A DNA stretch of 64,000 bases from Escherichia phage Ec_MI-02, in the sequence record OP856590.1. One strand, 5' to 3'. Every line of letters starts with the position of its first letter. Position 1 is the first letter of the stretch. The position numbers were made by a program, and so were the translations under genes. Below are positions 40,175-64,000 of the stretch, piece by piece. Under the pieces are notes generated by a model. It made no database searches and was not told where the DNA came from. It saw only the letters and a list, made by a program, of their open reading frames with translations.

Positions 40175-40645
40175 TTAATCATGTTTCCACACCCCATCGG
40201 TATTTGACCAAAGTCGCTGATTATCTGATCCTCGCCACAACTTTTTGGTCGGAAGATTTTTCTCATACTTCCCATCAATAATAACATCAACATATTTAAG
40301 CATTTCTAGTTGTTTAATATCTTCAAATTTATATCCTGTCCACAACCAAATGCTTTTATTTGGATAAAGATTTTTTACTGTTTGAACAATGCAATGAATA
40401 ACATCTCGGTTATCAGGATAGAGAGGGTCTCCTCCAGTTATAGTTAATCCTTCTATATAATCATTATTCAAACATTTAATTAATTGTTCCAGCGTTTCAC
40501 CAGTGAATGGAACACCGTTTCTAGCATTCCATGTTGATTTATTATAACACCCTTCGCATTTATGCAAACAACCTGTAACGAAAAGAACAGTTCGGCACCC
40601 AGGACCATTAACAAAGCAACACGGATATATTCTGTCATAATTCAT
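40175..40645 (-). CDS. nrdG: anaerobic ribonucleotide reductase activating protein NrdG (156 aa)
   Basis: radical-SAM cluster CLHKCEGC; 156 aa. Confidence 0.85.
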   Translation of the reverse strand: MNYDRIYPCCFVNGPGCRTVLFVTGCLHKCEGCYNKSTWNARNGVPFTGETLEQLIKCLNNDYIEGLTITGGDPLYPDNRDVIHCIVQTVKNLYPNKSIWLWTGYKFEDIKQLEMLKYVDVIIDGKYEKNLPTKKLWRGSDNQRLWSNTDGVWKHD

Positions 40646-41474
40646 TTATATATTTCCAATTATAGCCTTCAACACTTTTACGTTCGCCATTTAAACATTT
40701 TAAAATATTTCCTTTGCTAGAAATATTAAAATATTTTGCTGCGTCTGGTATATAATTAAATGTTTTTAAAAGAACACCATCTTTGTATGCGCCAAATAAA
40801 TTAAGAGTATATTTTTCTCGAAGACGCTGATGTTTCCTTTTCATAACCTCAGGATTTGCATACGCCAGCTTTAATGAATTTCTATGTTTTTCTTTTACTT
40901 CAGGTTTTTGCATTGCTAACTTAGTTAGCCTGGAAATTTTATTTCTAACTTTATCAGTTTTCATTGCATTTGACAAATTTAATAAAGTTTTATTTCTAAC
41001 TTCAGGTTTTTGCATTGCTAACTTAGTTAGTTCGCTATGTCTTTTTCTAAAATCGTCATCTTTCCATATATTTTTCGATAATTTTGACATAGAGCGGTGA
41101 AATAATTCCCTTTCTTTGGAATACAGTTTAAAAATTTCATCCAATTCATCAGTATTAAATCTATCAGTATTCGAGTTTATCATTCTATGAAAGGCATAAC
41201 ACATTTTACTATTACTTGTTTTAGCTAAATAGTAATGAGCCAATGCATGGTCATAATATGACAAATTAACAATATTCCATTTATCTGTTTTATATTCAGG
41301 AAATATAGATTTGGGAAGCACGTGATGTGCTTCCGTTTTCCCCTTTATTTTAGGATTATTATAATTTTTTATTATCAAATCAACATATGACAATAATAAA
41401 TCATTATTTTCTTCAAATATTAAAGTTAATTTATCATTCACAAAATCACAGGGATAAAATCTATCGTAATTCAT
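40635..41474 (-). CDS. HNH homing endonuclease-like protein (mob-like, 279 aa)
   Basis: HNH motif AHHVLPKS...NIVNLSYYDHALAH; inserted between nrdD and nrdG; N-terminus MNYDRFYPC mimics nrdG start. Confidence 0.7.
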   Translation of the reverse strand: MNYDRFYPCDFVNDKLTLIFEENNDLLLSYVDLIIKNYNNPKIKGKTEAHHVLPKSIFPEYKTDKWNIVNLSYYDHALAHYYLAKTSNSKMCYAFHRMINSNTDRFNTDELDEIFKLYSKERELFHRSMSKLSKNIWKDDDFRKRHSELTKLAMQKPEVRNKTLLNLSNAMKTDKVRNKISRLTKLAMQKPEVKEKHRNSLKLAYANPEVMKRKHQRLREKYTLNLFGAYKDGVLLKTFNYIPDAAKYFNISSKGNILKCLNGERKSVEGYNWKYINEL

Positions 41475-59728: not shown

Positions 59729-60266
59729 TTACTATTTCCAAAAGTTTATTATTTTTAAGGTAATTAGCCTTTTCTAGGACTTCAGAAGCATATTTAGAAC
59801 CTGCTTTAACATTCCATCCCGAATTATAAGAGGATATTGCTTTTCTTATATCGCCCTTATGTATATTTAACCAATAAGAAAGTTCAATGTACGCCCAGGA
59901 AGCTGAATTGGACCGTTTATTCAACATTCTTTTTATTTCAGCATCGGTCATATTATAACCAAGTTCCTTAACTCTTGCTCGCATGGTCGGCAAATAATTT
60001 TGGAACATTCCATAGGCATGATGCTTTGGTTTAGATTTTAAATTAACTCCGGCAGAGCTTTCTTGCCATAAAATAGCAGCCATTATATGACCCAATCCGC
60101 TCTTGTGGATATTTTTGTGTGTTTTATATTTTCCATCCTTAGAAAATTGTTCCCCGAATTGATATGCGTAACGCATGTTATCGAGTTGGACATTACTGAA
60201 AGTATGCTCGGAGCTATGTGCCATCATTGAAATGGCCAATAGACCAGCGAGTAGTGCTTTTCTCAT
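59721..60266 (-). CDS. secreted lytic transglycosylase/lysozyme-like protein (181 aa)
   Basis: signal peptide; Slt-like core ILWQESSAG...YGMFQ. Confidence 0.55.
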   Translation of the reverse strand: MRKALLAGLLAISMMAHSSEHTFSNVQLDNMRYAYQFGEQFSKDGKYKTHKNIHKSGLGHIMAAILWQESSAGVNLKSKPKHHAYGMFQNYLPTMRARVKELGYNMTDAEIKRMLNKRSNSASWAYIELSYWLNIHKGDIRKAISSYNSGWNVKAGSKYASEVLEKANYLKNNKLLEIVND

Positions 60267-60273
60267 GCTTACC

Positions 60274-60735
60274 TCATTGAGTTTTAATTACTGCTTTAGA
60301 AGCCTTTCCTGGTAAACGACGACTGTTGATAATTGCCATCCTGCATTGAAGCGACGGGTCTTTGAACTTTGCATTAGGTTTACAAACTGTAAATCCAAGC
60401 CAAAGATTTCCATCTGTGATTTCTAAACGCCCAGGACGATATTCAACCCCATCAATAAAATCCTCGTCAATGTCAGGACGCGGAGGCATACTCAGGAATT
60501 CATTAACTTCTAAAACATGGTCTTTTATTTTGTGGAATAATTCAAAAACATATGTCTCATCAATCTCCCGTTGAATTGCACGATCAAGAAGATGCTGAGA
60601 ATATTTTAGATGAAACGATGAGACCCCTGCTGCTTTTGATGCCTCACGAATCTCATTGTTAATTTGACGAAACTCCGACTCAAAGTGACGACGAAGCTTA
60701 TTTCGACGGATAAAAACTTCTGTGTTGATAGTCAT
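60274..60735 (-). CDS. regB: RegB endoribonuclease (153 aa)
   Basis: 153 aa; position upstream of vs block; early promoter with perfect TATAAT upstream. Confidence 0.8.
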   Translation of the reverse strand: MTINTEVFIRRNKLRRHFESEFRQINNEIREASKAAGVSSFHLKYSQHLLDRAIQREIDETYVFELFHKIKDHVLEVNEFLSMPPRPDIDEDFIDGVEYRPGRLEITDGNLWLGFTVCKPNAKFKDPSLQCRMAIINSRRLPGKASKAVIKTQ

Positions 60736-60762
60736 GTTATTCTCCTCTTAACTGATAGAAAA

Positions 60763-60792
60763 ATTATACCACAGTCAAGAGGAAAAGTAAAC
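60763..60792 (-). promoter_or_regulatory. T4 early-type promoter for regB
   Basis: GTTTAC-N18-TATAAT. Confidence 0.6.
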
Positions 60793-60794
60793 AG

Positions 60795-61073
60795 TTATTC
60801 TTTAAATCTAATCAATTTATTCATAGACTTTGAAACTTCTGCACGGACCTCATGCAGGTTTTTAAGCTGTTCAAGACGTTGCTCATAGTAAGCAATTTCA
60901 TCTTCTTCAAGACAGTCCTGTGAATCTTCTTTAAGATAACGCGCATAGTCCTGGAAAGCTTTACGGACTACTTCTTGGAAGTCATCAAGACTTTGAATTT
61001 TCTTAGGAGCAACAGATACACGACGAGGGGCAGTATAATACTCATAACCAAACCCTGCGCTTAATTGAGCCAT
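60795..61073 (-). CDS. hypothetical protein (92 aa)
   Basis: track start GTG; [11 protein letters not shown] with TAATG coupling. Confidence 0.5.
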
Positions 61074-61339
61074 TAATATTTTTCCTCTGGTTGGAACACA
61101 GCACGACAAGCCCACATACTGGCTTCTTTGAGTTTCGTTTTAGCAATAGTTAACTGATCGAGGCTTTCAGCATAATTCTTCGCGAATTCACAGTCTTCAC
61201 AATTATCTAGTGCTTCCCAAAATTCATCGTATAAAGCGTCAAAGATAAGTCCTAAACGAACTTCAGCATCTTTGATAGCATTCACTTTACCGATTTTCTC
61301 TTCAGTATGTGGCTTATAACCTTTAATATCTTCAATCAT
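61073..61339 (-). CDS. small helical protein (88 aa), vs.4-position candidate
   Basis: trimmed to ATG (GAGGAAG SD, ATGATTGA overlap); fourth ORF above vs counting regB. Confidence 0.45.
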
Positions 61340-61553
61340 ATTTGACTTCCTCACCAGTACATAAATCATATTCAACTAAACGAATAGGTTCATGAATGCC
61401 ATATCCTTGAACAGAAATTTCTGTCGTAGGATAAATTCCATCAATATCACCCATGGTCCATGCTTCATTAAATTGCTGTTCGCCTGAATTACTAAACCAC
61501 TCGGCGAAAGCATTTAACACATCTTTAGAACCTTCAATAATTATCTTTGCCAT
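61332..61553 (-). CDS. hypothetical protein (73 aa)
   Basis: ATG; TAATG coupling. Confidence 0.5.
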   Translation of the reverse strand: MAKIIIEGSKDVLNAFAEWFSNSGEQQFNEAWTMGDIDGIYPTTEISVQGYGIHEPIRLVEYDLCTGEEVKYD

Positions 61554-61915
61554 TACAAGCTCTCAGTAAAGGTACGAGCGATAACGTCGCGCTGCTGTTC
61601 CGGAGTCAGAGAGTTAAAGCGAACTGCATAACCGGATACACGGATGGTCAGCTGCGGATATTTTTCCGGATGCTTAACTGCATCTTCCAGAGTTTCACGA
61701 CGCAGAACGTTAACGTTCAGGTGTTGACCACCTTCAATTTTAACTGTAGGATGTGATTCAATTTCAATTTCACGGGTGTGCAAACCGTAGAAAATTTCTG
61801 GGTCTACAAAAGAGTCCTCTTTAAAGGTTTTAGAAACAATAATTCGTGCTTGAATACCATCTTCAAAATAAATAGTACCTTTATGTGTGCCTTCAAGAAT
61901 TTGATATGCTTTCAT
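61553..61915 (-). CDS. autonomous glycyl radical cofactor GrcA/YfiD-like (120 aa)
   Basis: C-terminal [24 protein letters not shown] glycyl-radical signature. Confidence 0.7.
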
Positions 61916-61921
61916 ATAACC

Positions 61922-62251
61922 TCAATTAGAAAATAAATTTATCCAAGACTGTTCTTTAATTAAAAATGGCTCAGAATCATATGCCATTAAACTTTGGGTG
62001 ATTAGTCCTTTAAAAGGTCCATCAATAAATTCCATGGTAAAATATGGAATTTTATTCATTAATCTTGCATTAGGAGCAGTACACAAAACTCTGCATCCTT
62101 TGAATACACCTTTTTGTAATTTGTATTGCTTAGGATAAAATTCGCTCAAGACATTATTATTTGCCAAAATTTCAAAATGATTCACCAATTTATTTTTAAT
62201 AGTTTTTGGCGAAAAATAAAGATATTCGAAAAGCTGTGTGTCTGTCATCAT
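61922..62251 (-). CDS. hypothetical protein (109 aa)
   Basis: track ORF trimmed to ATG with ATGA coupling. Confidence 0.5.
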   Translation of the reverse strand: MMTDTQLFEYLYFSPKTIKNKLVNHFEILANNNVLSEFYPKQYKLQKGVFKGCRVLCTAPNARLMNKIPYFTMEFIDGPFKGLITQSLMAYDSEPFLIKEQSWINLFSN

Positions 62252-62835
62252 TGCATTCCGATCACAAAAAATTGAGGACGAGTAATACCACCGGTGCAAC
62301 ATTTACTATTGCAACAGTATTGTACAGTTTCAATATGAATATCGTAAATTTTATCCATATCGGGAGATTTAACAGGCTCATCGATTATATACAAAATCCG
62401 CGAAAGCGATAAACCTCTGAACTTGCTGCCTCTATTACCGATAAAACTACGGACAGAATCAGTAAATAAACGAAAACGTATATCATCACTAGAATAACGA
62501 GAAAATTCTTTTTTAATGTGGCCTGCAGAAATTTTAGCGTAAGCTGAAGTATTAGAAAGAACAATAACTGTTCCACCGTCATACAGCCAATTAGCAGCAA
62601 AGTTAGTCACAGCAGTTGATTTACCAGATTGGCGTCCACCATCTAGTCGAAGTGTACAATATTGTTTAAGCAAGTCTTCAAATGGTGGAATATAATCGTT
62701 TTTACAAATTTCTTCTACTCTAGCATCAGAATGGTGTGTAAAAGCATTCATCAGGGATAGATAAGGACCAGTTAAAAATGTTCTCATTTTATTCTCTCTA
62801 AATTTGGGCCATTCCATGGCGCATGAATTGTCCAT
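62248..62835 (-). CDS. P-loop NTPase-like protein (195 aa or 179 aa from second ATG)
   Basis: Walker A GGRQSGKST; start ambiguous (62835 or 62787). Confidence 0.55.
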   Translation of the reverse strand: MDNSCAMEWPKFRENKMRTFLTGPYLSLMNAFTHHSDARVEEICKNDYIPPFEDLLKQYCTLRLDGGRQSGKSTAVTNFAANWLYDGGTVIVLSNTSAYAKISAGHIKKEFSRYSSDDIRFRLFTDSVRSFIGNRGSKFRGLSLSRILYIIDEPVKSPDMDKIYDIHIETVQYCCNSKCCTGGITRPQFFVIGMQ

Positions 62836-62940
62836 TTCTGTATTTACCCATTACCGCACTTGGGCTCGACCTTATTACAGGTTGGCGGGAATCCCTCATA
62901 GAATCATGAGGTCCAGCTTGTTCCCATATTTCTTATTTGC

Positions 62941-63414
62941 TTATTTGAATGATTTGACGTACTGAATAGAGCCTTTGCTATTCACGAAAGCGATTTTACC
63001 ATTTTTGTTATACATGGTAGCAGTACGCTGATAACCATAAGTTTGTTTACCAGATTGATAACCAACTAATGCGAAATTATCTTCACCCATTTTATTCTGC
63101 TTAGCGCGGATACGTTCATGACCGTGTGCCATAAGAACCTTAGCGTCGCCAGTTGCAATGGATCTACGAGTTTTTTCATCTTCAACTGTATTAACAAAAT
63201 CGTCAAATGAATCAAATTTAGCATGAGATTTATTATACAGTTTTCCATCTACTGCATAATTATATCCCTGTACATCCATCTCAACTTCTGTACCATCATC
63301 CAATACAGCAGTGATTTTTTGACCTTTTTTAAATTTCAAAAGATCAGTAAAAGATTCAGCGATAATTTGAGAATTAATAGCTGCTTCAGTGATAAATTCT
63401 TGATATGTTTTCAT
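62941..63414 (-). CDS. internal-protein-like protein with capsid targeting sequence (157 aa)
   Basis: N-terminus MKTYQEFITEA matches the T4 internal protein CTS; basic protein. Confidence 0.6.
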   Translation of the reverse strand: MKTYQEFITEAAINSQIIAESFTDLLKFKKGQKITAVLDDGTEVEMDVQGYNYAVDGKLYNKSHAKFDSFDDFVNTVEDEKTRRSIATGDAKVLMAHGHERIRAKQNKMGEDNFALVGYQSGKQTYGYQRTATMYNKNGKIAFVNSKGSIQYVKSFK

Positions 63415-63423
63415 GTGTTTCCT

Positions 63424-63840
63424 TTAAATGTAAATAGTTTTACCGTAGTATTTATACCAGTATGGCTTCATTAAAATTTTTTCATCGAGTCGTTGTTGAC
63501 TCAACTTAATAGCTGATTTGCATGGATTATAATCATTTTTCCATTCTGCTGGAATATCGCTGATGTCAGGAACTTCAGTATCTTTTATACTAAACCCACG
63601 TTTTAAGCATTCCGTTATAATGTCTGATTGACGCTTTCGCAAAAATTCTAACTTATCGTAAAAGAACGTGACATGACCAGAACCTAAAATAAACTCGGAA
63701 GATATTTTAAAATCTTTAACCCGCTTACCATTTGCAACATGTTTACGAACTATACCAAAAACACGCGGCAGTTCACGGTATTCTGCGATTAAATGTTGAT
63801 CAGCAAGTTCAGATACTAAAGTCAAATTAATACGAGTCAT
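63424..63840 (-). CDS. denV: endonuclease V (pyrimidine dimer DNA glycosylase, 138 aa)
   Basis: 138 aa; [17 protein letters not shown] start; ATG confirmed. Confidence 0.9.
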
Positions 63841-63864
63841 TTTATCCCTCCAAGTAACTGTTAA

Positions 63865-63895
63865 TATACTATCACAATTCTAGGAGAAAGTAAAC
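63865..63895 (-). promoter_or_regulatory. T4 early-type promoter upstream of denV
   Basis: GTTTAC-N18-TAGTAT between e stop and denV start. Confidence 0.45.
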
Positions 63896-63899
63896 AACT

Positions 63900-64000
<101 letters not shown>

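Follow-up and report, generated by a model that had tools for sequence, protein, structure and literature searches.

The stretch of DNA analysed here (the window) comprises 64,000 nucleotides of Escherichia phage Ec_MI-02 (record OP856590.1), a Tequatrovirus. Close to one end it carries a small minus-strand gene for a GrcA-like protein, and the features discussed below are collected in Table 1. The region from 61000 to 62500 shares 99.8% identity with Shigella phage pSs-1 and is matched by 816 phage records. The pSs-1 protein is identical to the window protein at every amino acid (100%) and bears the RefSeq name ‘autonomous glycyl radical cofactor GrcA’. In phage T4 the ortholog is annotated as vs.6 (AF158101.6; UniProt name Y06I) and shares 96.7% amino acid identity over all 120 residues. 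Moreover, the gene order vs.8-vs.7-vs.6-vs.5-vs.4-vs.3-regB, within the denV-regB region, is common to the window and T4. Together with a match to PHROG 1209 over residues 1-120 (E 2.2e-62), these data clearly place the window gene in the T4 vs.6 orthologous group, and the equivalence to T4 vs.6 that had been suggested in the initial annotation is confirmed.

Table 1. Features of the window that are relevant to vs.6, in window coordinates.
Feature	Position	Strand	Basis or remark
vs.6 / Y06I ortholog	61553..61915, stop codon included	minus	ATG-to-TAA ORF, 120 aa, GrcA-like
Phage-specific 5' half, codons 1-59 plus 1 nt	61738..61915	minus	AT-rich; GC 0.33, GC3 0.19
Host-identical tract, gene nt 179-353 (codons 61-117 plus adjoining bases)	61563..61737	minus	175/175 nt identical to E. 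coli grcA
Gly95 codon in RVSGY (residues 92-96), predicted radical site	61631..61633	minus	Translation; 6OWR and 1H16 alignments
Last 10 nt of vs.6 (GAG AGC TTG TAA region)	61553..61562	minus	Site of the only two differences between the 3' half and E. coli grcA
nrdD, class III ribonucleotide reductase, formate-dependent type, 605 aa	41471..43288	minus	Pfam NRDD, E 1.3e-171
nrdG, radical-SAM activase of NrdD	40175..40645	minus	Fer4_12, E 3.6e-48; Radical_SAM

A Shine-Dalgarno sequence, GAGG, lies 6 nt 5' of the vs.6 ATG, and the stop codon of the gene overlaps the start codon of vs.5 (TAATG). A promoter and terminator scan of 60200..64000 returned 16 promoter-like sites against 13.6 expected, and no convincing signal was found 5' of vs.6 in that interval. 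The gene appears to be read within a tightly packed minus-strand cluster. The vs.8-like gene (62248..62835, minus strand) encodes 195 aa; residues 60-165 of its product weakly resemble the ATPase portion of large terminases (phrog_2, E 3.6e-6), and a Walker-A-like motif, GGRQSGKS, is present.

The T4 protein (L003:3001-3363) differs from the window protein at four amino acids. It has Ala47, Pro54 and Gln55 in the variable linker that precedes the radical domain, and a private R73H exchange (CGT to CAT) inside the host-derived tract described below, which neither the window nor E. coli nor any other phage examined shares.

At the protein level, vs.6 contains a single Pfam domain, Gly_radical (PF01228), which was recognised with 67.1 bits (E 2.3e-18) against a gathering cut-off of 22.2 bits, residues 60-101 being aligned to positions 65-106 of the 106-position profile. 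The E. coli GrcA structure (PDB 6OWR) matches the protein with an E value of 1.7e-41, and the C-terminus of PflB does so with 1.4e-26. The initial annotation had proposed a GrcA/YfiD-like glycyl-radical protein, and these three matches uphold that proposal. Residues 61-120 of vs.6 are identical to GrcA residues 68-127 at 60 of 60 positions, so that 6OWR already provides a solved structure for a radical domain identical to that of the phage. Alignment to PflB is confined to PflB residues 694-759, with 48 of 60 residues (80%) of the radical domain identical to PflB 700-759. Upstream of this domain only a weak protein alignment was recovered, in which phmmer paired vs.6 residues 22-60 with GrcA residues 28-67.

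In the 6OWR and 1H16 alignments Gly95 of vs.6 corresponds to GrcA Gly102 and PflB Gly734. The radical motif, including the glycine of RVSGY, is invariant across all of the listed phage and host homologues, and so the conservation of this glycine, on which the initial annotation had made its proposal depend, was found in all of the phage loci retrieved. The 24-residue signature peptide quoted there is also present, as residues 92-115; it is not the C-terminal end of the protein, since FTESL comes after it.

With its standalone PFL-type radical domain, its retained glycine and its lack of a catalytic barrel, the window protein fits the class of autonomous glycyl radical cofactors. The closest bacterial counterpart, E. 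coli GrcA (YfiD), likewise stands alone, at about 14 kDa, and carries a PFL-type radical domain, but vs.6 is 7 residues shorter and the N-terminal halves are only remotely similar. Furthermore, E. coli grcA is chromosomal and lies between ung and srmB/eamB, whereas vs.6 lies in the early-gene cluster of a lytic phage. The NCBIfam model TIGR04365 (‘spare_glycyl’) scored vs.6 at 154.7 bits over residues 20-120 only, below the bacterial GrcA equivalog cut-off of 170 bits, because the N-terminal part has diverged and is about 7 residues shorter. The protein is therefore filed here as a phage vs.6/Y06I-type cofactor and not as a strict bacterial GrcA equivalog. The GrcA2 and GrcA3 models (NF008341 and NF038360) match the 60-residue radical domain of vs.6 (E 6e-27 and 6e-31, respectively). 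These proteins, unlike vs.6, are of about 80 aa and do not have the N-terminal half, and vs.6 remained under both model cut-offs (93 against 145 and 106 against 158). In PflB itself the equivalent segment is the C-terminal domain around Gly734 (1H16 and others), which is the part that a spare protein replaces; vs.6 has neither the PflB catalytic barrel nor the Cys418/Cys419 active site and is a cofactor module only.

In PflB, Gly734 is both the site of the radical and the site of cleavage by O2 (PMC8683613). According to PMC8683613 and PMC13450708, which cite Wagner et al. 2001 (BBRC 285:456), the PFL activating enzyme places a glycyl radical on YfiD or Y06I, and the activated protein forms a complex with O2-cleaved PFL, whereupon activity is regained. 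Among spare-part proteins, only YfiD and Y06I have been validated (PMC8683613, PMC13450708). The 96.7% identity of the window protein to Y06I, together with the fully identical radical domain shared with GrcA, makes it very probable that vs.6 is a phage GrcA, equivalent to T4 Y06I, and acts as a PflA-activated spare part for O2-cleaved PflB. To this extent the gene and its biochemical role are already known, and the gene is annotated as such in RefSeq. In the scheme that follows from the work on Y06I, oxygen would cut host PflB at Gly734, with loss of the radical domain. Host PflA would abstract hydrogen from the phage protein at Gly95, and the activated 14-kDa protein would dock where the PflB radical domain was lost. 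The repaired PflB would then again make acetyl-CoA and formate from pyruvate.

T-even phages shut off host gene expression, and a phage-encoded copy would therefore presumably sustain PFL through infection. The physiological role suggested for vs.6 is thus to keep PFL running in facultative anaerobes under fluctuating oxygen, and a working PFL would maintain the supply of ATP, acetyl-CoA and formate. The kinetics of vs.6 could differ from those of YfiD, because the N-terminal region of YfiD, which has been called ‘enigmatic’, affects the efficiency of radical installation (PMC13450708).

Two other functions were considered. The phage protein might be a decoy or regulator that soaks up host PflA, or binds intact PflB, and so redirects fermentation. 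A host-identical radical domain would indeed rival host GrcA and PflB for PflA perfectly, and the phage-specific N-terminal half, whose YfiD counterpart is the ‘enigmatic’ region just mentioned, has been kept by purifying selection (see below). However, the in vitro work summarised in PMC8683613 has Y06I restoring PFL and not inhibiting it, and the sequence of vs.6 gives no sign of a lost catalytic glycine or of lost docking residues, so that a decoy is considered very unlikely. The other candidate partner is encoded by the phage itself. The initial annotation had envisaged replacement of a damaged domain in a host or a phage glycyl radical enzyme; the host PFL part of this proposal stands, but the phage NrdD part does not. 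Activation of vs.6 by NrdG, and its use as a spare radical domain for NrdD, could draw on the presence of nrdD and nrdG in the same window, on the Pfam Gly_radical domain found in both vs.6 and NrdD, and on a proposal by Nolan et al. 2006 of a role in nucleotide metabolism (PMC1524935); moreover, whether there are spare parts for glycyl radical enzymes other than PFL is still described as an open question (PMC13450708). Against this, a BLASTP comparison of vs.6 with the window NrdD gave an E value of 2.6, with no similarity to the C-terminal radical loop of NrdD and the radical motifs unaligned; of the alignments proposed in the initial annotation, those to GrcA and the PFL C-terminus succeeded and this one failed. 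The NrdD motif, RRTCGY, lies beside a Cys-rich C-terminal segment, whereas the motif of vs.6 is of the PFL type, and the vs.6 domain is that of GrcA, in DNA copied from host grcA, which fits a host PFL/PflA partner rather than one encoded by the phage. NrdD was accordingly dropped as a target, and a structural role of vs.6 in that enzyme is regarded as highly improbable.

A link between vs.6 and nrdD is more likely to be metabolic than structural. Class III ribonucleotide reductases use formate as reductant, and T4 NrdD is placed in the NrdD1 group, together with the formate-dependent enzymes of E. coli and L. lactis (PMC4493059). Because of this, we infer that nrdD may consume formate made by PFL.

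The nrdD and nrdG genes are encoded apart from vs.6, as had been noted initially, with nrdD at the coordinates now given in Table 1. In the window nrdD is one uninterrupted, intron-free open reading frame of 605 aa. Between nrdD and nrdG, at 40635..41474 on the minus strand, there is an open reading frame of 279 aa with weak NUMOD and I-HmuI-like homing-endonuclease matches, which occupies the position of T4 mobE. Its product starts MNYDRFYPCDFVN, which nearly repeats the 13 N-terminal residues of NrdG (MNYDRIYPCCFVN) and suggests an insertion with duplication of the 5' end of nrdG.

Comparison of vs.6 with E. coli grcA at the DNA level divides the gene sharply into two parts. The tract that is identical to E. 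coli grcA (Table 1) encodes the glycyl-radical domain. Extending the comparison to the end of the gene, nucleotides 179-363 match grcA with 98.9% identity over 185 nt in 5426 of 5426 complete E. coli genomes, whereas the first 178 nt have no DNA match in any of the same 5426 genomes. Base composition changes at the same point, with a GC content of 0.49 in the tract against 0.33 in the 5' half and 0.34 in the whole window. In DNA, the 5' half is about 47% identical to that of E. coli grcA, which is the level expected by chance, as against 72% identity to the 5' half of the gene in Klebsiella phages. It is under purifying selection, with a dN/dS of about 0.17 in comparison with phage L009. As the 5' half is remotely homologous to the GrcA N-terminus, and is 72% identical to that of Klebsiella phages, vs.6 as a whole is an old phage gene and not a recent fusion. 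Contamination of the assembly with host reads was ruled out, because the tract is present in hundreds of independent genomes, including T4, with a fixed boundary.

The same tract, with the same 5' boundary, was found in T4 and in six further phages (L004-L009), and the differences from E. coli that occur inside the tract are private singletons among the phages compared. Downstream of the tract, host-like and phage-like bases are mixed in the last three sense codons, in combinations that vary between the window and L003-L009 (GAGAGCTTG, GAAAGTTTG, GAGAGTCTG and GAGAGTCTA; E. coli has GAAAGCCTG), and the last codons of the T4 gene differ synonymously from those of the window gene. The idea that the two synonymous terminal changes create a ribosome-binding site for vs.5 was dropped, since at one of the two positions T4 has the same base as E. 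coli.

An estimate of relative age comes from the more distant phages L008 and L009, which possibly belong to Mosigvirus. Their flanking DNA is 63-73% identical to that of the window, and the 5' half of vs.6 is 88% identical, as against 97-98% for the 3' half. Between the window and L009 there are 11.8 synonymous differences at 37 synonymous sites in the 5' half (dS 0.41), and 0 at about 44 sites in the tract, where about 14 would be expected. In the phage database, 642 records match the 3' half at 95% identity or above, compared with 418 for the 5' half. Judged from these comparisons, the tract is apparently young relative to the phage lineages that carry it.

Klebsiella phages show a corresponding arrangement. 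In phage KPV15 (L030:1680-1862) and a metagenomic relative, L172 (L172:11945-12128), the 3' half of the gene is GC-rich. A 26-nt probe taken from the KPV15-type 3' half retrieved 31 metagenome contigs, mostly bacterial grcA loci, and one of these (L164) is 100% identical to K. pneumoniae over 1101 nt. Against this K. pneumoniae grcA, L172 shows a perfect run of 158 nt and KPV15 one of 140 nt. When the comparison is crossed, between E. coli phages and the Klebsiella host or the reverse, the perfect runs reach only 31-32 nt. The KPV15-like tract starts at codon 61, as in the E. coli phages, and stops 25 nt before the stop codon. The K. pneumoniae allele has matches of 90% identity or more in 138 Klebsiella-phage records. 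In the KPV15 record itself (L030:1501-1862) a frameshift interrupts the vs.6 homologue, such that only an 80-aa open reading frame remains and tblastn reports it in two places; either a sequencing error or a pseudogene might explain this. The homologue in L172, which is near-identical to the KPV15 copy, is intact.

Homologues of vs.6 extend well beyond these phages, with tblastn matches in 1588 phage records. Among them are T4-like phages infecting Escherichia, Shigella, Klebsiella, Enterobacter, Citrobacter, Yersinia, Morganella and Aeromonas, together with T5-like phages of ∼ 110 kb. Phages of the KP15, RB43 and RB49 types and T5-like phages, examined in IMG/VR, showed no host tract, their 3' halves being no more than 70-85% identical to any of 80 host grcA genes. 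As a negative control, the 3' half of S. enterica grcA gave no phage match at 95% or above.

The T5-like phages of Escherichia and Salmonella (L045-L071, about 105-120 kb) encode a homologue of 122 aa with ∼ 52% amino acid identity to vs.6, in which the invariant radical motif is kept. Its DNA is 70-75% identical to any host grcA and is thus without a host-identical tract. Several ‘viral’ contigs of IMG/VR (L072-L082) code for the C-terminus of a full-length PflB and not for a phage GrcA, and are probably bacterial or prophage-flanking DNA within the viral collection.

The sequence comparisons indicate that transfer was from host to phage. The host alleles track the species and keep the ung-grcA-srmB context, and each phage tract nests inside one host species. 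The origin that is favoured, somewhat more readily than it is doubted, is that the radical-domain half of vs.6 has been repeatedly overwritten by the grcA of the current host, in a host-to-phage gene conversion. By such overwriting, through homologous recombination, this half would stay matched to the host. It is also possible, although rather unlikely, that the tract was captured once from E. coli and then spread by phage-phage recombination with no repeated conversion. T-even phages recombine freely during co-infection, all of the E. coli-phage copies have the 5' boundary in common, and a single capture would also agree with the private singletons seen within the tract. However, a common 5' boundary is equally predicted by repeated conversion, since DNA homology ends there. 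Moreover, the Klebsiella phages carry a separate tract, from K. pneumoniae grcA and with another 3' end point, and host-to-phage transfer must therefore have taken place at least twice. The patchwork in the last 9 nt, which differs between E. coli phages, fits several events with different ends. Read most simply, host sequence entered the phage gene by conversion on at least two occasions, only across the segment in which DNA homology persists; in the case of the E. coli phages, either several conversions or recent spread from phage to phage would account for the data.

The identity of the tract could in principle also reflect extreme selection on codons or mRNA, with no recombination at all. 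Host grcA is highly expressed and the domain is fully conserved in the protein, as such selection would require. But the same pair of genes, from the window and L009, combines 0 synonymous differences in the tract with a dS of 0.41 in the 5' half, and phages of other T4-like genera, as well as the T5-like phages, specify an almost unchanged peptide from DNA that is no more than 70-85% identical to that of any host. Neither the S. enterica allele, which found no phage match at 95% or above, nor the host-like GC content of a tract inside a 34% GC genome would be expected from it, and the explanation is effectively refuted, its probability being close to nil.

The host-identical tract itself is a well-supported observation, and exchange of this general kind is known from other metabolic genes of phages. 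A search of open-access text found no prior report of the tract, which may nevertheless have been mentioned in older T4 papers. T-even phages are generally considered to have almost no DNA in common with their hosts. The vs.6 gene contains a functional domain whose nucleotide sequence is that of the host, and this holds for at least two pairs of phage and host. If repeated overwriting by host grcA is correct, it would keep the phage spare part an exact fit for host PFL and PflA, and vs.6 would offer a clean and experimentally tractable case in which conversion from host to lytic phage can be measured. One could then ask whether a phage metabolic gene must match PflB and PflA exactly.

The process behind the vs.6 tract resembles that behind the host/phage mosaics of psbA, a phage metabolic gene, reported for marine cyanophages (Zeidner et al. 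2005; Sullivan et al. 2006). There, segments are reportedly swapped with the host copy by intragenic recombination, leaving patches of host-like sequence and GC content. The present case concerns another gene, another phage group and another host, and differs in that the exchange forms one sharply bounded block that covers exactly the functional domain and is seen independently for two enterobacterial hosts.
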